A DNA stretch of 64,000 nt from an uncultured Candidatus Binatia bacterium (GTDB lineage Bacteria; Desulfobacterota; Binatia; UBA9968; JAJDTQ01), in assembly GCA_965213675.1 (NCBI GenBank), contig OZ243916.1, positions 2,624,001 through 2,688,000 of the forward strand, read 5' to 3'. This document shows positions 3,813 through 32,902 of the stretch, one piece after another (position 1 is the first letter of the stretch; each line of letters opens with the position of its first letter). Position numbers and translations under genes: made by a program. The notes beneath the pieces were generated by a model, which saw only the letters and a program-made list of their open reading frames with translations, made no database searches and was not told the DNA's origin.

Positions 3813-4913
3813 ATGGGCAGAATCAAGAACCTCGACGAGATCAAGGCCATGGTGCGCGAGCGCACCGGGAAGCGCACGGTCTTCCGCGGCGCCCGGATCG
3901 AGGACGTGGAGCCGGTTCTCGACCGGCTCACGACCAAGGACCCGGAACTCTGGGCGGCGGAGTGGTCGCGGGCGGCGGCGCCCTACGAGGAAGCCGGCGA
4001 TACGCACGAAGCGGCGGGACGGAGGGCGGAAGCGCGGGAGGCCTTCCTCATGGCCTACGTGTACTACACCATCGGGCGCTATCCCGTGCCGCACTCGCCG
4101 GGGAAGCAGGAATGCGCGCGCAAGAGCGTGGCGTTGTACCTGCGGGCGGCGCGCCACTTCACGCCGGCGCTGGAACTCCTGGAAATTCCCTACCGCGAGG
4201 ATCGGATGATCCGGGCTTTCCTCCGAAAGCCCCAGGGCGTAGTCCCTTGCCCGGTGGTCATCAACTTCGGCGGCATCGACTCCTACAAGCCGGAATGCCA
4301 CGAGTACGACGAGGCGCTGCTGAACGCGGGGCTGGGAGCGTGCGCCATGGACATGCCCGGCGTGGGGGAGGCTCCGATCAAAGGCTCCACCACCGCCGAG
4401 AGCCTGTTCAGCGCAGTCATCGACCATCTGTGTGAACGCGAAGACGTGGATGCGCGGCGCATCGGCATACTGGGCCGGAGCTTTGGCGGCTACTGGTCCG
4501 CCAAGATGAGCTTCGTGGAACCCGAGCGGTTGCGCGCCGCGGTGGTATGGGGCGGCGGCGTCCACTACAACTTCCAGCCGGATTGGGTGCGCGGGTCCAC
4601 CAACGCGGAGAGCTACCTCATGGACCACGAGATCTGCCGCGCCAGCGCCTTCGGCCTCCGCAACATCGATGAGCTGGCGGCGTTCTTCCCCTCCCTTTCG
4701 CTCAAGACCCAGGGGCTGCTGGACAAGCCCTCCTGTCCCATGCTGATCGTCAACGGGAAGAACGACCTGCAAACGCCCATTCAGGACCTGTATCTGCTTT
4801 TGGAACACGGCGGTCCCAAGACCGCCCGGGTCTTTCCCGGAGGCCACATGGGCCAGACGCCGCAGACCCTTCCCACCATCGTCCGCTGGCTCCAAAGGGA
4901 GCTGCGAAAATAA
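3813..4913 (+). CDS. Alpha/beta hydrolase, FrsA / 2,6-dihydroxypseudooxynicotine hydrolase-like
   Basis: 'GGIDSYK', 'DMPGVGE', nucleophile 'GRSFGG', 'NGKND', 'GGHMG'. Confidence 0.8.
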   Translation: MGRIKNLDEIKAMVRERTGKRTVFRGARIEDVEPVLDRLTTKDPELWAAEWSRAAAPYEEAGDTHEAAGRRAEAREAFLMAYVYYTIGRYPVPHSPGKQECARKSVALYLRAARHFTPALELLEIPYREDRMIRAFLRKPQGVVPCPVVINFGGIDSYKPECHEYDEALLNAGLGACAMDMPGVGEAPIKGSTTAESLFSAVIDHLCEREDVDARRIGILGRSFGGYWSAKMSFVEPERLRAAVVWGGGVHYNFQPDWVRGSTNAESYLMDHEICRASAFGLRNIDELAAFFPSLSLKTQGLLDKPSCPMLIVNGKNDLQTPIQDLYLLLEHGGPKTARVFPGGHMGQTPQTLPTIVRWLQRELRK

Positions 4914-21482: not shown

Positions 21483-21661
21483 GAGCCCCAGCCGTGAACG
21501 GGGCTGGCTGGGTTGCGGCCGAGCCCCTCGCCCGCGGCCGTTCGGATGTCCATGGTCACAGGCTGCCTCCCGTTTGCTCAGAATCGAAAGTCGCCGCGAA
21601 AGGACCGTTGCCAGCGCCGCGTGGCTGGTTTTTGGCGGCGTCTGTATGTTTTCAAAACAAC

Positions 21662-21691
21662 TTGACAACGGCCGGGCGTGTCGAGTACGGT
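21662..21691 (+). promoter_or_regulatory. Sigma70-like promoter
   Basis: TTGACA (21662-21667), 18 bp, TACGGT (21686-21691). Confidence 0.55.
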
Positions 21692-21696
21692 AGCCA

Positions 21697-21762
21697 ACTA
21701 CTCCCCCTGTTCGCTTCGGCGACAGGGCGCAAGGCTGCCGCAAGGCAGCCTTAGCTTTTTTT
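21697..21762 (+). ncRNA. Candidate ~65-nt two-hairpin small RNA / terminating leader upstream of the NYN gene
   Basis: Hairpin 1 CCCTG(T)TCGC-TTCG-GCGACAGGG (21705-21727); hairpin 2 AAGGCTGCC-GCAA-GGCAGCCTT (21731-21752); T7 at 21756-21762. Confidence 0.55.
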
Positions 21763-21774
21763 GGGCCGGCACTC

Positions 21775-22398
21775 ATCCGTACCAACATCTATATCGACGG
21801 TTTTAATCTCTACTATCGTGCGCTTCGGGGTACGCCTTACCGTTGGCTCGATATTGGGAGGCTGGCGCGGACCCTGCTTTCCCGTCATCACATATGCCGG
21901 ATACGGTACTTCACCGCCTTGGTCGCCAACCGCGCTGGCGACTCCACCCAGGCGCAACGGCAACAGGCTTACATCCGCGCCTTGCAGACCATACCCGACT
22001 TGACCATCCATTACGGCCATTTCCTTGCGAAAACCAAGCGGAGACCGCTCGCTCGCCAACCAAATACCGGCCCACGCACCGTCGAGATACTGGACACCGA
22101 GGAGAAGGGTTCAGACGTCAATCTCGCCTCCTACCTGTTGCTGGACGGCTTTGAAGGAGAATACGAGATGGCCGTCGTGATCTCCAACGACTCCGACCTG
22201 GAACTTCCCGTCCGAATGGCACGGACCAAGCTCGGAAAGGAGGTAGGAGTCTTCGACCCGAGCCGCAGACGGAGCTTTCAGTTGCACGACGCGGCGTCTT
22301 GGTACAGACCGCTACGCGAGGGTCCACTGCGCGCCAGTCTTTTCCCTGATACCGTCCGGGACGCGCATGGCTCCATAACCAAACCAGCAGGCTGGTAG
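21775..22398 (+). CDS. NYN-domain (LabA/DUF88, PIN-like) ribonuclease; apparent ATC start
   Basis: In frame with ORF 21919: '(I)RTNIYIDGFNLYY...YFTA...EEKGSDVNLA...ISNDSDL'; no ATG/GTG/TTG between the upstream TAG (21691) and the DGFN motif. Confidence 0.85.
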   Translation: MRTNIYIDGFNLYYRALRGTPYRWLDIGRLARTLLSRHHICRIRYFTALVANRAGDSTQAQRQQAYIRALQTIPDLTIHYGHFLAKTKRRPLARQPNTGPRTVEILDTEEKGSDVNLASYLLLDGFEGEYEMAVVISNDSDLELPVRMARTKLGKEVGVFDPSRRRSFQLHDAASWYRPLREGPLRASLFPDTVRDAHGSITKPAGW

Positions 22399-22497
22399 GC
22401 CAACGTGTTCAAGAAGATAGCTTCAATCTACGGTTGCGCCTTCTCCGGAGGCACCGTGTAACGCCTGCCAAAGGACCCCGATTGGATCGAGGGTTCT

Positions 22498-22791
22498 TCA
22501 AGATACGTCACAACGACAGCGGCGGGTCCCGGAAGACCTCTTTGCGGTGCCATTGAACGAAGTCGGGGTCGGGGTCCAAGGTTCGATTCTTCGGCGGGCG
22601 CAACCGCTTGCCATGGAAGTCATCGAACAATTCCGAGGGGTTGACGTCGCTGGAGACGAGTATCCTGAAGTCGTCGTCCACGGGATCGAGGCCGAGGGCG
22701 CCGCGGTCGAACAGCTTGTGGTCGGACCAGCACAAGGCCAACCCGTTGAACACTTCATCCGGGCCGCCCGCGGCATGCCACTTGATATGCG
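22498..22791 (-). pseudogene. HNH endonuclease C-terminal remnant, 5' part removed at the IS3 junction
   Basis: 'HIKWHAAGGPDEVFNGLALC..HKLFDRG...FVQWHRKEVFR'. Confidence 0.75.
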
Positions 22792-22854
22792 TGGTCTTAC
22801 CCGGGTTTGGTGGACATCTGATAAGAGGCGAAGATGGCCTCGGAGGTGACGACC

Positions 22855-23142
22855 ATGACACGGAAGAGACGGAAGTTTTCGAAGGAGTTCAAGCAGGAAA
22901 CGGTCAAGCTGGTCAAGGAAGGACCGCGCTCGGTGGGAGAAGTCGCGCGTGATTTGGACTTGACGGAATCGGCGGTACGCAACTGGGTGCGGCAGTTCGA
23001 CGTGGACGCTGGTGTGCGCGAGGGGGTGAGCACGGGCGAGCTCGAGGAGGTACGCCAGCTGCGGTCGGAGAACCGGCAGCTACGGATGGAGCGCGACATC
23101 CTAAAAAAAGCGACGGCCTTCTTCGCCAAGGAATCGATGTGA
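22855..23142 (+). CDS. IS3 transposase OrfA
   Basis: 'RRKFSKEFK...EVARDL...LRMERDILKKA'. Confidence 0.9.
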   Translation: MTRKRRKFSKEFKQETVKLVKEGPRSVGEVARDLDLTESAVRNWVRQFDVDAGVREGVSTGELEEVRQLRSENRQLRMERDILKKATAFFAKESM

Positions 23143-24002
23143 GGTTCGCGTTCATCGAGGCGGAGAAGGCCAGATTTCCCGTGACCATGATGTGCCGGCT
23201 GCTTGAGGTTTCTCGAAGCGGGTTCTACGCTTCGCGTGGGCGTCGTGAGAGCACGCGGGCAGGGGAGGACCGCCGCTTGCTGGTCCACATCAAGGCGAGC
23301 CACACGGCGTCGCGTGGGACCTACGGCAGCCCGCGGGTGCACCGGGACCTGGTCGAGGACGGCGTGGCAGTCGGACGGCACCGCGTAGCGCGTCTGATGC
23401 GCCAGGAGGGCCTTCGCTCCAAGCGCCGGCGCCGCTACCGGGTGACCACCCACTCGGACCATCACCACCCGGTGGCAGCCAACGTGCTGGAGCGCGACTT
23501 CACCGCCGATGCCGAGAACTGCAAGTGGGCAGCGGACATCACCTACGTGTGGACGCGCTGTGGCTGGTTGTACCTGGCGGTGGTGCTTGACCTGTACTCC
23601 CGCCGGGTGGTCGGATGGGCGATGTCCAATCGCCTCACACGGGAACTCGCGTTGAACGCCTTGGGCATGGCTCTGACCCACCGGCCTCGGCCCGAGCTGC
23701 TGCTGCACCACTCTGACCGCGGCAGTCAATACGCTTCGGCCGACTACTGGCGCCTGCTCGATGCCCACGGCATCCAATGCTCCATGAGCCGGCGCGCCAA
23801 CTGCTGGGACAACGCCGTCGTGGAGAGCTTCTTTGCTACCCTGAAGACCGAGCTTATCCACCACGTCGACTACCCCACTCCAGCCGAGGCAAGGGCCGCG
23901 ATCTTCGAGTTCATCGAGGTGTTCTACAATCGGCAACGTCGCCACTCCACCCTCGGCTACCAGACATCAGCTGGCTTCGAACGGATGGCACCGGCAGCTT
24001 AA
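23139..24002 (+). CDS. IS3 transposase OrfB (DDE)
   Basis: 'WAADITY', 'HSDRGSQY', 'DNAVVESFF'. Confidence 0.92.
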   Translation: MRFAFIEAEKARFPVTMMCRLLEVSRSGFYASRGRRESTRAGEDRRLLVHIKASHTASRGTYGSPRVHRDLVEDGVAVGRHRVARLMRQEGLRSKRRRRYRVTTHSDHHHPVAANVLERDFTADAENCKWAADITYVWTRCGWLYLAVVLDLYSRRVVGWAMSNRLTRELALNALGMALTHRPRPELLLHHSDRGSQYASADYWRLLDAHGIQCSMSRRANCWDNAVVESFFATLKTELIHHVDYPTPAEARAAIFEFIEVFYNRQRRHSTLGYQTSAGFERMAPAA

Positions 24003-24036
24003 CTAATCTGTCCACCAAACCCGGGGAACGCCAGCA

Positions 24037-24601
24037 TGTACCTGGTGGCGGTGATGGACTGGGCCACCCGCCGGGTGCTCTCCTGGCGGCTGTCGAACAC
24101 CCTCGATGCCCGCTTCTGTGTCGAGGCCCTCTCAGAGGCTCTGGAACGCTACGGTCCTCCCGAGATCTTCAACACGGACCAAGGCAGCCAGTTCACCAGC
24201 CTGGAGTTCACCTCCGTGCTCAAGGACGCCGGCATTGCCATCTCCATGGACGGCAGGGGCCGGTGCATGGACAACATCTTCATCGAGCGCCTGTGGCGCT
24301 CCCTCAAGTACGAGGCCGTCTACCTGCACGAGTTGACCGACGGCTTCGCCGCCCAAAGGGCCATCGCCAACTGGCTCCACTTCTACAACACCCAAAGACC
24401 TCATTCCGCCCTCGCCGGCTCCACCCCGGCGGAGGCCTACGAACCAGGACTCCACAGGCCGGACCTCACACCCCGCCCGCCCCTCTGACAGTTCCATCGG
24501 AACACGAAGACGTGATAAACGGGACCTTGGCGGCATGATCGATCGTCTGGAATACACCTTAACTCCGCCGCCTTCCTGTCCTACAAACCAGGACCACCTC
24601 A
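24037..24601 (+). mobile_element. 3' fragment of a second IS3-family element, inverted near-identical copy of the 25074-26405 element
   Basis: 'YLVAVMDWATR...NTDQGSQF...DNIFIERLW'; terminal ...CCAGGACCACCTCA at 24601. Confidence 0.88.
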
Positions 24602-25057: not shown

Positions 25058-26509
25058 CTAGCACTTCTTCTTGTGAGGTGATCCTGGTTTGTAGGACAGG
25101 AAGGCGGCGGAGATAAGGTGTATTCCAGACGATCGATCATGCCGCCAAGGTCCCGTTTATCAGGTCTTCGTGTTCCGAAGGAACTGTCAGAGGGGCGGGC
25201 GGGGTGTGAGGTCCGGCCTGCCTCTGGAGTCCTCGTTCGTAGGCCTCCGCCGGGGTGGAGCCGGCGAGGGCGGAATGAGGTCTTTGGGTGTTGTAGAAGT
25301 GGAGCCAGTTGGCGATGGTCCTTTGGGCGGCGAAGCCGTCGGTCAGCTCGTGCAGGTAGACGGCCTCGTACTTGAGGGAGCGCCACAGGCGCTCGATGAA
25401 GATGTTGTCCATGCACCGGCCCCTGCCGTCCATGGAGATGGCAATGCCGGCGTCCTTGAGCACGGAGGTGAACTCCAGGCTGGTGAACTGGCTGCCTTGG
25501 TCCGTGTTGAAGATCTCGGGAGGACCGTAGCGTTCCAGAGCCTCTGAGAGGGCCTCGACACAGAAGCGGGCATCGAGGGTGTTCGACAGCCTCCAGGAGA
25601 GCACCCGGCGGGTGGCCCAGTCCATGACCGCCACCAGGTACAGGAAGCCACTCTGGACAGGGATATAGGTGATGTCGGAGGTCCACACGTGATTGGGCCG
25701 TTCGATGGCGACGCCCTTGAGCCGATAGGGATAGACCCGGTGCTCGGGGTGCGGTCGGGTGGTGCGCGGCGCCTGGTAGATGGCCTGGAGCCCCATCAGG
25801 CGCATCAGACGCCGCACCCGGTGACGACCCACTCGGACTCGCTCCCGCCACAGATGGCGGACCATCTGGCGGCTGCCGTAGAAGGGGTACTCCAGGAACA
25901 GCTCATCGATCCGGCGCATCAACGCCAGATTCTCCGCGCTCTCGCCCTTGGGCCTGTGGTACACAGAGGATCGGCTCACTCGAAGCAGATGGCATTGACG
26001 GCTCAAGCTGAGCTTGGGATGGCCGGGCTCGATCATCCCCCGGCGCTTCTCCCGGCTCACCACTTGAGCCCCTTGGCCAAAAAATCCCGCTCCACCGTCA
26101 GCTCCCCGATCTTCGCGTGCAGGTCCCGGACCTCCCCCTCGTGGTCTCCTCGTGCCCGCTCGGCTCCCTTCGAGAACACCTCCTTCATCCCCTCCACCGC
26201 ACGCTGCTTCCACGTGCTCACTTGGTTCGGATGGACCTTGTGCCGCGACGCGAGCTCCTGGATCGTCTTGTCTCCGCGCAGCGCCTCCAGCGCTACCTTC
26301 GCCTTGAACTCTCCGCTGAACCGTCGTCGTGTCCTCATTGCGTATCCCTCCCTGAGTCGGTGGAATACACCTTAGCTACCTGTCCGTTTTTCCGGGACCA
26401 CCTCATTGATCGGCTTGGGGGCCGATCGCTTATGAGCCTTGACGGTTACCGGTTTCGGTCCCGGCTTTTTGCCTGTCCTCGTTGGGCGGCAAACCACCTT
26501 CTTGGCCAT
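25058..26509 (-). pseudogene. 38-aa Lys/Pro-rich microprotein gene interrupted by the IS3 element
   Basis: AAGGAGGT RBS + ATG 26509; removing the IS and one TTG gives MAKKVVCRPTRTGKKPGPKPVTVKAHKRSAPKPIKKKC then TAG (25060-25058). Confidence 0.7.
25074..26405 (-). mobile_element. Complete IS3-family element (1332 bp) with 3-bp TSD
   Basis: Ends TGAGGTGATCCTGG.../...CCGGGACCACCTCA; TTG duplicated at 25071-25073 and 26406-26408; orfA 26057-26338, orfB ending 25137. Confidence 0.92.
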
Positions 26510-26802: not shown

Positions 26803-27153
26803 ATGGCCTCTCCTTCTGAAATCTTTCGGCAGCGTTTGAGGGCGGCCAGGGGTACACGCGACTGGAGTCAAAGCGATTTGGCCCAGCGCGCTGGCTTGCC
26901 GCCTAGTTCGATAGCGCACTTTGAAACCGGATCACGCAAGCCATCTTTCGACACCTTGCGGCGACTCGCTAGTGCATTGGAAGTTACGACCGATTACCTT
27001 TTGGGAAGAGTCGAGGAACCTGGTCTTGCCGAAGCCGGAGACCCGTTATTCCGAGATATCGGTAATCTCACCGGCAGCGACCGCGAACTAGCCAGGGACT
27101 TCCTCAAGATGTTGGCGGACCGCAACGCAGCCAAACACAAGGAAGGCAAATGA
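26803..27153 (+). CDS. XRE-family HTH transcriptional regulator (CapH/ImmR-like)
   Basis: 'RLRAAR...SQSDLA...IAHFETGSRKPSFDTLRRLA..LEVTTDYLLGR'. Confidence 0.92.
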   Translation: MASPSEIFRQRLRAARGTRDWSQSDLAQRAGLPPSSIAHFETGSRKPSFDTLRRLASALEVTTDYLLGRVEEPGLAEAGDPLFRDIGNLTGSDRELARDFLKMLADRNAAKHKEGK

Positions 27154-28013
27154 GTGTGGCGTTTGGTCTGGAGATGGCCGAAAGGGAAGGGGAAGCCATA
27201 GTCGGTAGGCTAGGCATTCATTCCCTGCCCATAGATCCTATCGAGATTGCGAAACACCACGGCATCGCGGTTGAACCAAAACCCGACGCCGCTGAGGGTG
27301 TGTCCGGAATGCTCCTTCGTCACGGCGACACCTTTGGGATTCTCTATGCCACTCACATCGCAAGCAAGGGTTTCCAGAGGTTCAGCATAGCCCATGAGCT
27401 TGGGCATTATTTCCTTGATGGACACATAGATCATGTCCTCAAAGACGGCCCTCACAGCTCAAATGCAGGTTTCTCTTCCCCCAACCCTTACGAACGGGAA
27501 GCCGACAGTTTTGCGGCTGGCCTGCTGATGCCGGGTCACCTATTCCGCAAAGAGCTGAACCAAGAAGCCCCAGGGCTAGCTACAATTGAGGCATTGGCCG
27601 ATCTCTGTCAGACATCCCTAACAGCGACTGCAATTCGGTACGCCAAATTGACCGAAGACGCGGTCGCCGTGGTCGTGAGTACCGGCAAAGCCATCAATTT
27701 TTGTCGGCTCTCGGATGCCATGACGTCGTTGGCTGAGATCACATGGCCAAAAAAGGGCGATCTTGTTCCGTATGGCACCGCTACTGCGGACATCAATGCC
27801 GATCCTGCCCGGGTCGCCCTGTTGGACCGCGCAGAAGCGGAAATCGACATCCTGGACTGGTTGGGCGGTCAACGGTCCGTGCAAGGGACAGAACAGGTCA
27901 TGGGACTCGGCAGCTACGGCAGGACCCTTACTGTTCTTTCTGTAGATGACATGTGTGAAGAGGACGAAGAAGAAAGCCTAACCGAGAGTTGGACTCCACG
28001 TTTGCGTCGATAA
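27150..28013 (+). CDS. ImmA/IrrE-family Zn metallopeptidase (CapP-like)
   Basis: 'RFSIAHELGH', 'EREADSFAAGLLMP', 'TSLTATAIRY'; ATGA overlap with XRE. Confidence 0.9.
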   Translation: MSVAFGLEMAEREGEAIVGRLGIHSLPIDPIEIAKHHGIAVEPKPDAAEGVSGMLLRHGDTFGILYATHIASKGFQRFSIAHELGHYFLDGHIDHVLKDGPHSSNAGFSSPNPYEREADSFAAGLLMPGHLFRKELNQEAPGLATIEALADLCQTSLTATAIRYAKLTEDAVAVVVSTGKAINFCRLSDAMTSLAEITWPKKGDLVPYGTATADINADPARVALLDRAEAEIDILDWLGGQRSVQGTEQVMGLGSYGRTLTVLSVDDMCEEDEEESLTESWTPRLRR

Positions 28014-28076
28014 GCTCGCGCGGGCTTGGGCGTGACGCGGTCATCACTGCTTTGAATAGCGCACGGAGTCTATCCA

Positions 28077-28946
28077 ATGGCTAAAGAGGAAAGCGTAACC
28101 GTCTACCGGGCTCTCAGCTTGGGGGCTGGAGCCCAGAGTTCAGTTCTAGCGCTCTTGCTTTCTCGGTCCGATGCTCGCTTGGCCAAGCTTGGTTATCGGA
28201 AACCCGACGTCGCCATCTTTGCCGACACTGGATGGGAGCCTGAGTACGTTTACCGCCATCTGGACTGGCTAGAAAAACAACTGACCTATCCATTAGTCCG
28301 GGTATCCGAGGGCAATCTAAGGACGAACCTGAAGCGAGGTCGAACTGTATCGGGTCATCGTTTCGTTGATGTACCCCTATTCACGATCGATCCGGGTGGC
28401 AAGAAGGGGATGCTGCGGCGGCAGTGCACGAACCACTACAAGATACGGCCCATCTATCGACGAATTCGGAGGCTTGCTGGTGGACAACCTGGCCGACCGT
28501 TTCCCAGAGATACCCATGCCGAAATGTGGCTTGGTATTTCCCTGGACGAGGTGGGCCGCATGAAGCCGAGTAGGGAGTCGTGGGTCGAACATCGCTGGCC
28601 TCTTGTCGACATCGGCATGACGCGTGAGGATTGCATCGACTGGTTCAACTCTGAGTATCCAGAACGCCATCTGCCTCGGTCAGCCTGCGTCATCTGCCCC
28701 TACCGCTCAGACGACCACTGGTCGGAACTCAAGGAGCGTGAACCGGCGAGCTACAAGGAAGCCATCGAGTTCGACCGCTGGCTTCGGAGAAGCACCGACA
28801 CCCCTATACGGAAGCTGTTGAATGGCCGACCGTACCTGCACGCGGCTCGCCGTCCCCTCGCCAGTGTCATGGAAGACCGGGAGACGGGCCGCGCGACCAG
28901 CATCGACAACTTCAACAACGAGTGCGAGGGCCTCTGTGGTGTCTGA
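28077..28946 (+). CDS. PAPS-reductase-like PP-loop (HUP) protein, Cys-rich
   Basis: 'SLGAGAQSS', 'FADTGWE', 'RQCT..YKI.PI', 'GISLDE', 'RSACVICPY', C-terminal 'ECEGLCGV'. Confidence 0.75.
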   Translation: MAKEESVTVYRALSLGAGAQSSVLALLLSRSDARLAKLGYRKPDVAIFADTGWEPEYVYRHLDWLEKQLTYPLVRVSEGNLRTNLKRGRTVSGHRFVDVPLFTIDPGGKKGMLRRQCTNHYKIRPIYRRIRRLAGGQPGRPFPRDTHAEMWLGISLDEVGRMKPSRESWVEHRWPLVDIGMTREDCIDWFNSEYPERHLPRSACVICPYRSDDHWSELKEREPASYKEAIEFDRWLRRSTDTPIRKLLNGRPYLHAARRPLASVMEDRETGRATSIDNFNNECEGLCGV

Positions 28947-28956
28947 GACAGGAACC

Positions 28957-30186
28957 GTGACAATCAGGCCAGAATATCCCTTGTACCCATACCAAAGACA
29001 AGTTCTGGCCGACATTCTCCGTGCACTATCATCTCCTGAACCTCGTGTGGTCGCTCATCTTCCTACCGGCGCCGGCAAGACTCGGATCGCAGCACACGCC
29101 GCTTGTCACCTCCTCAACGAAAGGGACACCGAAGACTCTCTCGTCATCTGGCTGGCAGCCACAGAGGAACTTTGCGAACAGGCGGCCGACCAACTGTCAG
29201 ACGCGTGGACGCATCTGGGCCGGCGCGAGGTCTCCATTCATCCCTATTGGGGAAGCCAGTCAACTGACTTGCGACGTCTCCCCTCCGGTTTCTTGGTGAC
29301 CGGCCTTGCCAAGCTACGCTCCATTGCCTTCCAAGACAACACCCTTCTCGCGCACCTAGCCCAGTGTGCCGCGGCCGTCATCTTTGACGAAGCTCACCAG
29401 GCGATCGCCAACACCTACTCCTACATTACAGACCAGCTTTGCAGTGTAAGGCCACCCCTTCTCGGCCTCACAGCCACTCCCGGGCGGACCGCGAATATCA
29501 CGGATGCCGACTTTCGGCTTGCAGAGATGTTCAAGCACAACAAGGTTTCTATAGATCCAAGGGGGCACGACAACCCAGTTACCTATCTGATTCAAAACCA
29601 CTACTTGGCCGATCCACGCTTCGTGCCAATCGGCTTCGATTCGGACACGACGATCACTGAGCCCCTGCCCGGGGCCGACTACAGCACAGAGGATCTCAAG
29701 GACATGGGCCGGAGCCGCCAACGCACACGCAAGATCGTAGAACTAGCCGAGGATGCAGCGGCACGCCATCCCCGCACTATAGTGTTTTGCCCGTCTGTCG
29801 AAAGTGCTCTGGAATGCACCGACCTCCTTCACGCAAAGGGTGTCATTGCTGATGTTGTCACCGCTGAGACCCCCATAGAAGTTCGTCAAACCGCCATCTC
29901 AGCCTTCCGAAGTGACCGCAGGGAACACATGGTGATATTGAACTACGGTGTACTGACCGCCGGGTTCGACGCTCCGCGCACCCGATGCGTCATCATCGCG
30001 CGGCCAACAACGTCGCTAGTGCTTTACTCACAGATGGCCGGGCGGGCGATGCGCGGCCCTAAAGCCGGTGGAAATTCAAAGGCCGAGATACTCACGGTGG
30101 CAGACACGAACCTACCGGGGTTCGGGTCCGTGACTGATGCCTTCACAAATTGGGAGCACCTATGGTCAACCAACTCGCCGAATTAG
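28957..30186 (+). CDS. SF2 DEAD/DEAH-box helicase (ResIII-like)
   Basis: 'LPTGAGKT', 'DEAH', 'TATP', 'GFDAP', 'QMAGRAMRG'; GTG start 28957 (or 28939). Confidence 0.9.
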   Translation: MTIRPEYPLYPYQRQVLADILRALSSPEPRVVAHLPTGAGKTRIAAHAACHLLNERDTEDSLVIWLAATEELCEQAADQLSDAWTHLGRREVSIHPYWGSQSTDLRRLPSGFLVTGLAKLRSIAFQDNTLLAHLAQCAAAVIFDEAHQAIANTYSYITDQLCSVRPPLLGLTATPGRTANITDADFRLAEMFKHNKVSIDPRGHDNPVTYLIQNHYLADPRFVPIGFDSDTTITEPLPGADYSTEDLKDMGRSRQRTRKIVELAEDAAARHPRTIVFCPSVESALECTDLLHAKGVIADVVTAETPIEVRQTAISAFRSDRREHMVILNYGVLTAGFDAPRTRCVIIARPTTSLVLYSQMAGRAMRGPKAGGNSKAEILTVADTNLPGFGSVTDAFTNWEHLWSTNSPN

Positions 30187-32015
30187 AACACGCAGACCGC
30201 AACCTTTTTCCGAGCAATTTCACGATAAGGGCGCTGCGGGATAGCCGGTACCACAACACCGCCTACGCCATTGCTGAACTGATTGACAACTCCGTTGAAG
30301 CACACGCCGAGCAAATAGACCTCCTCTGCATGGAGCGGGTGCAAAACACCGCCCTCCAAAAGCGTCGACGAGTATCCGAGGTGGCCGTCATCGATAACGG
30401 GGTGGGAATGGATGTCAAAACGCTCTTCGAGGCCCTGAAATTTGGAGGAGGAACCCGTCACCACGCAGACCGAGGGATCGGAAAATATGGAATGGGCTTG
30501 CCCACGTCGTCAATGTCTCAGTGCAAAAGAGTAGACGTCTGGACATGGCAGGAGGACATAGATTCGGCGTGGCATTCCAGTATTGACGCCGACGAGATCG
30601 AGCAAGGGGACCACAGAGCTCCGCTCCCCGACCGAGACACACCCATACCGAAGGTGTGGTTAGAGGCGGCCAGCGACCGCATACTCAACCATCGCTCCGG
30701 TACAATTGTCGTATGGACAAAGCTCGATAAGATCCAATGGCGCACCGGCGGCACCATCCTTCGGCACACCGCGCGAGAGGTCGGTCGTATCCACCGCTAT
30801 TGGATTGATGCCGACATGACCAAGATACGCATCGGGTATTTTCTCAACAACCGACCGACAAATATCGAAAACGAAGGCCATATTGTGGCCAACGATCCTC
30901 TCTACTTAATGACTCCTTCCTCGACACCCGCACCATGGGACAACAAGCCAATGTTCAAGCAATGGGCGACACCTACCGAATATACGGCCACTGTGGACGA
31001 CAAAGAGGTGCCGATCCAGGTACGATACTCCATCGTCACACCCGAAGCACTACAGACCACCGTCGTTGCGCAGCTTCCCGGCGCGACAGACCACGGCAAA
31101 CACGCTAGACATAACATCGGGGTATCTGTTGTTCGAGAGGATAGGGAGATTGTACTCGAAACGGCCTTCCTCCGAGAGGGCGGGAGTGCAGAAAATCCAC
31201 AAAACCGGTGGTGGGGCTGTCAAGTCCAATTCGGTCGTGTTTGCGACGAGTTGTTTGGAGTAGACCACAACAAACAAATGGTCGCTAACTTTACCCACGC
31301 TGCAAAGACTCTCCTCCAAGACGACCGTCCGAATCAAGTCATACTTGACGAGTTGGGCGTCGACGATGACATCATCTACACCATAGTTGCAGACATCCGC
31401 GACCAGACCCGCGCAATGATGGCCACCATTAGACAAATGTTTGCACAACGACGACCTCAACCACATGGACCTACGACGAATAATCCCGAAAAGAAGGCGG
31501 CAAAGACCGCCACTGAGGCTGACCGAGACGCGATGGAATCTGGCAAGGAGAACCCCACCAAGACGGACCGGGATCGGGACGACATTCCGCCAGAGGATCG
31601 CGAGGCTGAACTTACCAAACAGTTCATGAACGCCGGGCAAACGGCTCAGGACGCCAAGACGCTCGCCAAACTGCTTGTGCAGGAGGGCCTTTCTTACCAA
31701 TTCAACTCGATGCAGCTCGACGGTTTCCAAATATTCAATGTTCGGTCGAACCAAGGGGTTCTACACATCAATCTGAACACCGATCATCCCATTTATGACC
31801 TCCTCAAACACATTGAAGACGACCTTCCTGAGGATGTCGACGAGAACAATCCCGCGTTCCAGGCCAGCGTGGCGATCAGATTGTTATTGTCATCGTGGGC
31901 TCGAATGGAGGATCAAACCGAATCACGCGAACAGCGCGCACACATACAGGACACCGCCATGAACTGGGGACGTCAGGTTGATAAAGCTATCAGCCAGTTG
32001 CGCGACAGAGACTGA
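30162..32015 (+). CDS. GHKL (HATPase_c_3 / MORC-like) ATPase
   Basis: 'AIAELIDNS', 'IDNGVGMD', 'GIGKYGMG', 'GTIVVW'; GGGAG RBS before ATG 30162. Confidence 0.88.
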   Translation: MVNQLAELEHADRNLFPSNFTIRALRDSRYHNTAYAIAELIDNSVEAHAEQIDLLCMERVQNTALQKRRRVSEVAVIDNGVGMDVKTLFEALKFGGGTRHHADRGIGKYGMGLPTSSMSQCKRVDVWTWQEDIDSAWHSSIDADEIEQGDHRAPLPDRDTPIPKVWLEAASDRILNHRSGTIVVWTKLDKIQWRTGGTILRHTAREVGRIHRYWIDADMTKIRIGYFLNNRPTNIENEGHIVANDPLYLMTPSSTPAPWDNKPMFKQWATPTEYTATVDDKEVPIQVRYSIVTPEALQTTVVAQLPGATDHGKHARHNIGVSVVREDREIVLETAFLREGGSAENPQNRWWGCQVQFGRVCDELFGVDHNKQMVANFTHAAKTLLQDDRPNQVILDELGVDDDIIYTIVADIRDQTRAMMATIRQMFAQRRPQPHGPTTNNPEKKAAKTATEADRDAMESGKENPTKTDRDRDDIPPEDREAELTKQFMNAGQTAQDAKTLAKLLVQEGLSYQFNSMQLDGFQIFNVRSNQGVLHINLNTDHPIYDLLKHIEDDLPEDVDENNPAFQASVAIRLLLSSWARMEDQTESREQRAHIQDTAMNWGRQVDKAISQLRDRD

Positions 32016-32020
32016 TTAAC

Positions 32021-32902
32021 ATGGACGGACGGCCAGGAGAAACGTTGCGCAGTGTTTGTTCACGTGCCAATCGTCTGATTGTCGCGGCACCATACATCAA
32101 GAACAACGCCCTTACCAAGGTAGTCGCCGAGGTGAGGCCGGAAACCTCCGTCGTCTGCATCACGAGATGGAGCCCACATGATATCGCTATGGGTGTGTCC
32201 GACACCGAATGTCGGACCTTTGTCGTGCAGCGTGGAGGATCGTTCAGACTTCACCCGTCACTGCACGCCAAATATTACCGGGCTGATGACACAGTGCTCG
32301 TCGGTTCCGCGAATCTGACAAATTCCGCTTTGGGCTGGTCGTCACAGGCTAATTTAGAGATTCTCTGCACGCCAGGAGACGACTTCGACGCGGACACCTT
32401 TCAGCGGCGCTTGTTCGAGGAGTCACGGGAGATCAGCGATGAAGAGTTCTCACATTGGGAGTCCATCACCGACTTGGGCGTTCAGATCATGCGCAGGGCG
32501 ACTGGTGACGTTCCCCGGCTCGATACTTGGAGACCGGCAACTCGTGACCCAACGCACTTAGAAGTCGCGTATCGCGCCGACTACGATCAGATAGCATCTC
32601 TCGACGAGCAAAGATCGGCACAGCGCGACATTCAGGCCCTCCGAGTTCCCCCAGGATTAACCAACCAACAGGTCCGCGCCTGGATCTCAGGCTGCCTCCT
32701 TGCGGCTTCCTTCACCAACACCGTACTCCGGCTGCGTAATGCAGAGGCTCCGGACATATTGCGTTCCTTGGCAGAGTTCTACAAACTCAGCGCAACCGAT
32801 GCACGAAGGGACATGGAAACTGTCGAGACTTGGCTTTCATTCTTTGCTCCCGCGACCCTCACTCGCATCCGAACCGCCCCGGGTTTACCGGAGCCGGATT
32901 AG
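32021..32902 (+). CDS. Phospholipase D-family (single HKD) nuclease-like protein; last ~10 aa come from an IS end
   Basis: 'VAAPYI', 'LHAKYYRADDTVLVGSANLT' = HxKx4Dx5GSxN. Confidence 0.82.
   Translation: MDGRPGETLRSVCSRANRLIVAAPYIKNNALTKVVAEVRPETSVVCITRWSPHDIAMGVSDTECRTFVVQRGGSFRLHPSLHAKYYRADDTVLVGSANLTNSALGWSSQANLEILCTPGDDFDADTFQRRLFEESREISDEEFSHWESITDLGVQIMRRATGDVPRLDTWRPATRDPTHLEVAYRADYDQIASLDEQRSAQRDIQALRVPPGLTNQQVRAWISGCLLAASFTNTVLRLRNAEAPDILRSLAEFYKLSATDARRDMETVETWLSFFAPATLTRIRTAPGLPEPD

Follow-up and report, generated by a model that had tools for sequence, protein, structure and literature searches.

A short gene cassette in a 64,000-nt stretch of the genome of an uncultured Candidatus Binatia bacterium (contig OZ243916.1; this whole stretch is the window, and coordinates are positions within it) joins a sigma-70-like promoter, a predicted small RNA of ~63 nt with two hairpins and a terminator-like T tract to a ribonuclease-like gene of the NYN family. 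We find that this RNA is linked to NYN genes in many bacteria, where it can change strand and side while keeping its partner, and that in the window and its close relatives the NYN gene probably starts at ATC or ATT. A preliminary description had proposed an RNA-antitoxin (type III-like) module; in our judgement the chances are about even that the locus is a type III-like RNA-antitoxin or abortive-infection module in which the RNA restrains the NYN nuclease. The wider claim, that a cross-phylum class of ~63-nt two-hairpin RNAs (a tandem array in some plasmids) serves as antitoxin or controller of an NYN-fold ribonuclease, we hold at slightly short of even.

The elements described earlier, namely TTGACA-N18-TACGGT, both hairpins, the T7 tract and an ATC 12 nt after the T run, all lie where they had been placed (Table 1). 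Hairpin 1 (21705-21727) has 9 bp, one bulge and a UUCG loop, and the core of hairpin 2 (21731-21752) is a perfect 9-bp stem with a GCAA loop that extends to 11 bp past a bulged A. A 101-nt stretch of the locus has a predicted folding energy of -44 kcal/mol vs -28.6 +/- 3.1 for 200 shuffles (z = -4.95), none of which equalled it, and the 9-bp stem with 6 GC pairs followed by T7 has the predicted shape of an intrinsic (Rho-independent) terminator. On this single sequence, promoter and terminator are not beyond chance: a generic promoter scan of the window makes no call at 21662-21691, the -10 hexamer matching at just 3 of 6 positions, and the generic terminator scan yields 2 terminator-like sites vs 1.9 in shuffles, i.e. 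no excess. Their support is conservation among relatives. That the locus belongs to a repeat or mobile element of its genome was ruled out, since a 114-nt stretch of it is single-copy there as DNA and the covariance model described below matches only copies adjoining NYN paralogues.

Table 1. Features of the NYN locus, its surroundings and a plasmid relative (window positions unless another record is named; L-numbers are fetched loci).
Feature	Position	Strand	Basis or remark
Sigma-70-like promoter of the small RNA: TTGACA 21662-21667, 18 nt, TACGGT 21686-21691	21662..21691	+	Sequence and family conservation
~63-nt two-hairpin RNA motif, whole covariance-model match	21699..21762	+	83.3 bits, E 1.7e-23
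C-run CCCCC (first two C unpaired) and hairpin 1	21703..21727	+	Fold
Hairpin 2, terminator-like	21729..21754	+	Fold, terminator scan and covariation
T7 tract, U tail of the terminator-like hairpin	21756..21762	+	Sequence
12-nt spacer with weak purine patch GGG, ahead of the start codon	21763..21774	+	Sequence
NYN-domain ribonuclease-like gene, 207 aa, HEC-09 family, probable ATC start	21775..22398	+	Pfam, PADLOC, AlphaFold2 model
858-bp unit: promoter, RNA, NYN and 108 nt	21649..22506	.	Missing from co-occurring strain variant
Defence-island-like gene row: CapP-like M78 peptidase, SspD-like protein, ResIII/DEAD helicase, MzaB-like GHKL ATPase, PLD nuclease	27150-32899		PADLOC
33-nt x 3.5 repeat array	L103 586-698 = NZ_CP075066.1 4485-4597		Between promoter-like site and terminator, then NYN

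The RNA was followed through 80 NYN loci fetched from public genomes, whose NYN proteins are 44-83% identical and which come from about eight phyla (Chloroflexota/Dehalococcoidia, Acidobacteriota, Actinomycetota, Verrucomicrobia, Saccharibacteria, Spirochaetia, Burkholderiales, Eremiobacterota and Marinimicrobia). Built from 71 aligned upstream elements (alignment A1), a covariance model with 63 positions and 20 pairs finds the full-length motif (E <= 1e-5) at 78 of them. As to the other two, the contig of L068 begins 17 nt before the gene, with the motif tail still visible, and L080 has an altered N-terminus and shows no motif even with search filters off. The RNA family as defined here consists of 90 full-length matches at E <= 1e-5, with 83 distinct sequences.

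Covariation is strong in stem 2, with 99.7% of its cells paired and both sides altered in 9 of 11 pairs among the distinct sequences. For the whole structure, four of five measures lie above all 500 shuffles, the fifth being reached by 3/500, and paired cells amount to 88.3% overall vs 37-49% with partners slid, in an alignment that was fitted to the covariance model, which favours the structure. Stem 1 is 71.6% paired in this alignment, blurred by register shifts; folded per sequence, it has at least 6 bp in 82 of the 83 distinct members, with 54 different 5' strands, and its loop is UUCG in 54 of these 82. Conserved unpaired bases are the 5' C-run (4-7 nt as the longest run in the first 14 nt of 79/83 distinct members), the junction GGG(C/U)GCGA, and (C/U)UGC then U's, T59-T61 being almost invariant in alignment A1. 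Free variation between copies is confined to the two short loops. The predicted fold belongs to a conserved RNA family and has not arisen by chance, and covariation of an upstream structure among homologues, a check suggested in the preliminary description, is thereby confirmed. Rfam 15 gives no match at E <= 1 in the window between 20500 and 23500, and at nine relatives' loci the motif is overlapped only by sub-threshold chance matches (isrD, 24.4 bits vs 37; Moco, 23.4 vs 36).

Hairpin 1 also has variant forms. In Anaerolineae loci including L040, L046, L050, L052, L056, L063 and L071 it carries an internal loop, AGUA opposite GAA, which we take to resemble the sarcin-ricin (bulged-G) motif, and in L055 and L061 its stem has an additional insertion.

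The same conservation could be sought in DNA alone, with no functional RNA: a promoter and an insulating terminator on a mobile NYN cassette, conserved through horizontal spread. Hairpin 2 with T7 is a textbook intrinsic-terminator shape, and the cassette is mobile or variable (see below), but compensatory changes are found across proteins just 44-55% identical and about eight phyla, and a terminator needs neither stem 1 nor the C-run nor the UUCG loop, all of which are conserved. Moreover, a promoter firing straight into an insulator is sensible only if its product matters. We consider this explanation very improbable.

The position of the motif relative to the gene is variable. It lies upstream on the NYN strand in 70 of the 80 loci, is convergent, ~10-25 nt past the NYN stop, in six (L034, L035, L041, L082, L083 and L084; the contigs of L082 and L084 come from a single genome and are identical, and L083 and L082 are from Embleya hyalina NBRC 13850 and Actinacidiphila yanglinensis CGMCC 4.2023, respectively), and is divergent upstream in two (L067 and L077, weak matches at ~30 bits). 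The Mycobacterium phage prophiGD43A-1 likewise has a convergent motif (50.1 bits), with an NYN protein 45.9% identical, and a Leptospira plasmid has an upstream copy (33.9 bits). Ahead of the motif, TTGAC occurs within 60 nt in 70 of 87 distinct upstream regions, against 6.1% of random 60-mers of the same loci, and at 34-38 nt from the motif start in 56/87; the full pattern TTGACn-N16-19-TAnnnT is present in 48/87 vs 0.3% of random 60-mers. With these boxes at a fixed distance, transcription should therefore begin at the motif. At the convergent loci the RNA has -35 and -10 boxes of its own (e.g. TTGACT-N17-TACACT in L034) and ends ~10 nt from the NYN stop, NYN being almost leaderless under a separate promoter. 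Owing to its own promoter and its changes of strand and side, the RNA would thus be a separate gene, not merely a leader, and that it keeps its NYN partner across strand and side favours a trans-acting product.

The RNA is also found in additional copies. The whole promoter-plus-RNA unit is duplicated in tandem in L037, L044 and L060. In the window's own genome all three NYN paralogues carry a motif copy, among them L088 (G000:C1:2975975-2976665; 45.5 bits), whose ATG start follows the U tail by 10 nt and whose NYN frame shifts mid-gene, either as a pseudogene or through an assembly error, and L003 (G000:C1:549389-550159, minus strand), with a diverged motif directly upstream (13.8 bits, E 0.0047) and an insertion of ~52 aa between the two halves of its NYN protein. 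At L017, a second motif copy with promoter-like sequence (4655-4717) lies just past NYN and is followed by fragments that resemble VapB/VapC (RHH/PIN) more than another NYN gene.

These arrangements bear directly on the possibility that the RNA is chiefly a cis-acting autoregulatory or attenuating leader, a 5' stabilising hairpin with a terminator or attenuator, that sets NYN expression, with an NYN protein that may bind or cut its own mRNA and no toxin-antitoxin relation. Such a leader would resemble those of E. coli rnc and rne, where a structured autoregulatory 5' leader precedes a ribonuclease gene (RNase III and RNase E), and would suit the 70 loci that carry the motif as a 5' leader and have their start codon 12-25 nt beyond the U tail; in several minimum-energy folds (L014, L020, L043, L057) the spare 5' C's even pair with the G-rich ribosome-binding region. 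However, at eight loci and in one prophage the RNA is on the other strand with its own promoter, outside the NYN mRNA, and duplicated promoter-plus-RNA units and orphan copies fit poorly with a leader. Convergent NYN genes being nearly leaderless, C-run pairing with the ribosome-binding region cannot explain C-run conservation, and anti-Shine-Dalgarno pairing as the main function of the C-run was set aside on this ground. The rnc and rne leaders are not known as separate opposite-strand genes, as mobile elements or with a terminator right ahead of the start codon. We therefore think it unlikely that the RNA is chiefly such a leader.

The start of the NYN gene is unusual in its own right. The frame is open from a TAG at 21691-21693 to the stop at 22396-22398, and its first ATG, GTG or TTG is a TTG at 21919, codon 49. 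Taking as start position the seventh codon upstream of the invariant Asp of IDGFN, we find ATC in 20 and ATT in 8 of the 30 loci of the close clade (the window, L007-L032, L036, L039 and L072), the remaining two having GTG and GTT; in 42 of 49 distant loci ATG, TTG or GTG is aligned with the window ATC. No in-frame ATG, GTG or TTG occurs between motif and start position in 18 of the 28 ATC/ATT loci, and NCBI table 11 permits both ATC and ATT as starts. Because ATC or ATT is kept in 28 of the 30 close-clade loci, the ATC is best read as a clade-wide near-cognate start, neither an error nor the mark of a pseudogene; conservation of the non-ATG start, which had been named as a further check, thus holds in the close clade. 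The absence of a clear ribosome-binding site, also noted earlier, is true of the window, which has only GGG, but not of its relatives, which have GGAGG or GGGA 9-13 nt before ATC/ATT; their spacer region contains GGAGG, GGGA or GAGGA.

Other readings of the ATC were discarded. Contigs of four DNA runs (one study, possibly the source samples and not independent) agree with the window through the motif, the T7 tract and the ATC, with neither substitution nor indel, and the lack of indels rules out a sequencing error at ATC or T7 or a frameshift joining the frame of GTG-21678 to NYN. The relatives, which put the RNA in all three frames relative to NYN and so conserve no frame, speak against the same artefacts and rule out an upstream coding extension. 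Their annotated N-terminal extensions are translations of one upstream DNA segment in all three frames (CSLRRQGARLPQGSLSFF, PPVRFGDRAQGCRKAALAF and PLWASAPGREAAEWQPQLF), and it is therefore the nucleotides that are conserved, not a peptide. Public gene calls (P0003-P0116) are accordingly erratic, with false N-terminal extensions or cuts to 191/201 aa without a canonical start.

The only Pfam match of the window protein is NYN (PF01936; E 5.2e-10, residues 2-162, 40.4 bits vs a cut-off of 24.2), no NCBIfam family matches it, and the PADLOC profile HEC-09 covers it almost end to end (E 8e-41, profile positions 3-202 of 203). As first described, its acidic motifs are intact: among 42 homologues D8, E110, D114, D124 and D139 are invariant and D141 is nearly so. 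The AlphaFold2 model (pLDDT 94.8) has as best Foldseek matches 2qip (E 9.9e-9) and the MARF1 NYN domains 5yaa and 6fdl, and the predicted fold is NYN (PIN-like). By its profile the window protein is of the HEC-09 family, a candidate defence nuclease. In the main text of the preprint that describes it, HEC-09 is a MARF1-like NYN nuclease with conserved aspartates, embedded in Hma defence systems (10.1101/2024.01.29.577857); the words 'non-coding' and 'ncRNA' are absent from this main text. The RNA partner and the AUC/AUU start are added to this protein family by the present analysis. The family is a large one, with 7,850 database clusters at E <= 0.001 among 8,000 scored candidates.

A dedicated RNA need not be an inhibitor. 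It could instead be a positive cofactor of NYN (a scaffold, a specificity subunit or a sensor), or a substrate that NYN matures, and the same RNA-NYN linkage in all orientations would be expected from this as well. The conserved single-stranded bases (C-run, GGGYGCGA junction and YUGC-UUU tail) suggest protein contacts, and the failure of HEC-09 to defend E. coli could reflect a missing or misexpressed RNA. Against a cofactor, only the two short loops vary freely, so there is no guide-like segment; orphan RNAs without NYN exist; and a terminator ahead of the gene, a weak start and extra RNA copies follow the dosage logic of an inhibitor in excess. We regard a cofactor or substrate role as distinctly unlikely.

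More distant NYN genes on plasmids have related layouts. Proteobacterial plasmid homologues (30-37% identical) carry hairpins and, ~20 nt ahead of the start codon, a strong terminator. On the E. coli plasmid pUN_J9_5 (NZ_CP075066.1; NYN 36.6% identical) a 33-nt hairpin unit stands in 3.5 tandem copies (Table 1; TRF score 163), which may instead be iterons. By eye this unit, a C-rich stretch and then a hairpin, is similar to the window's C-run and stem 1; as a scored homologue of hairpin 1 it was dropped, as the covariance model gives it no score. No tandem array is present on the small ColE1-type plasmids of Klebsiella, E. coli and Citrobacter (L129-L131), which have only a terminator-like hairpin and loosely repeated segments. 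As a candidate class, the arrangement is found in Chloroflexota, Acidobacteriota, Actinomycetota, Spirochaetota, Saccharibacteria, Verrucomicrobia and further groups, as well as on plasmids and a prophage.

In type III toxin-antitoxin systems (ToxIN, CptIN, TenpIN; AbiQ-antiQ), a promoter is followed by an antitoxin RNA, a terminator that sets the RNA excess and an endoribonuclease gene, and the toxins fall into the families ToxN/AbiQ, CptN and TenpN. The window shares with them, as a sequence layout, the RNA gene directly upstream of the nuclease gene with an intrinsic terminator between the two. Type III systems sit on plasmids, prophages and defence islands, a further likeness, and pUN_J9_5 with its 33-nt x 3.5 array has the classical type III layout. 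In contrast, the window toxin would have an NYN (PIN-like) fold and does not belong to ToxN/AbiQ, CptN or TenpN, the window and most relatives have a single two-hairpin unit in place of a toxin-processed tandem-repeat array, and the RNA gene that partners NYN may be convergent or divergent to the nuclease gene. The type III comparison draws in part on the abstract of PMC12283969.

A second comparison is with AbiF (Abi_2, HEPN) of Clostridioides difficile, which, as described in the abstract of a preprint, is neutralised by the ncRNA RCd22 in cis and in trans through direct binding, RCd22 also lowering toxin expression (10.1101/2025.04.15.648962). There, as at most NYN loci, a structured non-CRISPR RNA with conserved hairpins stands upstream of an RNase-type gene; unlike there, the fold is NYN and not HEPN, and the RNA motifs are unrelated. 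The preliminary description knew of no such layout for NYN proteins, and we found no RNA partner of NYN/HEC-09 genes in Rfam 15 or in the searched literature (main texts outside subscription journals). The main texts of three Breaker-laboratory motif surveys mention neither NYN nor LabA, and the literature search returned nothing joining NYN with type III toxin-antitoxin and nothing relevant on an NYN antitoxin small RNA in phage defence.

If the RNA is an antitoxin, the locus could work as follows. The sigma-70-type promoter would start transcription a few bases ahead of the conserved C-run, and the RNA would fold into the UUCG-capped hairpin 1 and the GC-rich hairpin 2 followed by U's, where most transcripts would probably end. 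Read-through transcripts would carry the NYN frame, to be translated from an AUC/AUU start behind a weak ribosome-binding site. With both a terminator and a poor start codon, RNA would thus be made in large excess over nuclease. It would bind the nuclease and hold it inactive, in cis and in trans, as do type III antitoxin RNAs and RCd22. Should the short-lived RNA be lost, e.g. on shut-off of host transcription by a phage, the freed nuclease would cut cellular or phage RNA and bring about abortive infection or addiction. In this scheme RNA-protein binding, nuclease toxicity, termination in vivo and the trigger are inferred. We prefer an inhibitor in excess because of a short RNA that would be strongly expressed, the terminator before the nuclease, the poor start codon and the extra RNA copies.

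The distribution of RNA and nuclease was further surveyed in a sample of 150 other genomes of the organism's phylum. The motif is present in 6 of these genomes, and 6 of 10 motif matches (including the two of the window's own genome) adjoin NYN; HEC-09-family genes are present in 14/150. In genome G081, three contigs carry the promoter and RNA with no NYN (L090, L095 and L096). L095 and L096 share both flanks and L090 shares only the upstream flank; the copy in L095 is flanked by the 3' end of dnaE and by a gene for an IS4-like DDE transposase. The RNA unit of G081 seems to have been copied around without NYN.

The support that we count for an RNA-restrained nuclease is the linkage, the RNA's own promoter, covariation, duplicated units, the ATC/ATT start, the HEC-09 match with invariant catalytic residues, the genomic context, the pUN_J9_5 array and the precedent of RCd22/AbiF. 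The type III-like proposal thus stands as to layout, conserved covarying RNA and conserved start; it does not as to a repeat antitoxin and a toxin of ToxN/CptN/TenpN type, and the locus is type III-like in working at most, not a member of the described type III families. Several observations weigh against restraint by the RNA. As reported in the main text of the HEC-09 preprint, HEC-09 gave no protection in E. coli against any phage tested (10.1101/2024.01.29.577857). The window RNA is non-repetitive and its processing by NYN is not evidenced, the RNA is a 5' leader in 70/80 loci, so that a purely cis role fits most copies, and the covariation of stem 2 could reflect a terminator role alone. 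In the phylum sample, 4 of the 10 motif matches are orphan RNA copies (three in one genome, the fourth beside masked sequence), and of eight full-length HEC-09 genes in the 150 genomes three have a strong motif and one a weak match in the right place (L111). The remaining four HEC-09 loci have two-hairpin elements seen by eye only and unscored by the model; by such fold readings, L104 and L105 have a divergently oriented two-hairpin element with a U tail, and L106 and L109 have a different leader consisting of promoter, two hairpins and a U run. Lastly, the defence context counted in support is a raw, uncontrolled figure: at 24 related loci 11 of 124 neighbour open reading frames (ORFs) within 4 kb match PADLOC (E <= 1e-10), over nine loci (124 of 134 ORFs were scanned, all ORFs of L018 and L083 being left out for size); among these neighbours are type IIG restriction-modification enzymes or DrmD directly upstream.

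In the window, the unit is flanked on one side by a housekeeping amidase gene and on the other by a group of defence-type and mobile genes, at the margin of a putative defence island (Table 1). In the row at 27150-32899, the CapP-like M78 peptidase matches PADLOC at E 2.9e-66, the helicase is PbeA-like and the PLD-family nuclease is DrmC-like. Closer to NYN, an HNH endonuclease remnant (minus strand, 22508-22861) is interrupted by an IS3-family element (orfA 22834-23142, orfB 23139-24002), and a second IS3-type transposase gene is present twice, in part (24036-24488) and in full but inverted (25137-26213), with identical peptide stretches.

The unit is also variable within the sampled population. 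Contigs of three of the four runs (X1, X3 and X4, from one sample) depart from the window after 21648; 10 differing letters follow, and next comes a 19-mer whose sole occurrence in the window is at 22507-22525. For run X1, depth of the contigs is ~51 left of or outside the unit vs 14 inside. As the contigs bridge 21648 to ~22507, a co-occurring strain lacks exactly promoter, RNA and NYN (858 bp). NYN homologues were moreover found on 450 plasmid records.

If the wider, cross-phylum claim is true, these loci would represent a new type III-like toxin-antitoxin or abortive-infection family built on a PIN-like nuclease and doubly throttled, by a terminator and by an AUC/AUU start, the latter being, clade-wide, an instance of near-cognate initiation in nature. 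Genes of the NYN/HEC-09 kind are very common (7,850 clusters matched and 450 plasmid records), and annotation pipelines would gain a concrete fix, as the RNA is now misread as an N-terminal extension or the gene is cut short. For the HEC-09 family, a dedicated RNA partner would change how these genes are cloned and assayed, with or without the RNA and with their true start codon heeded.

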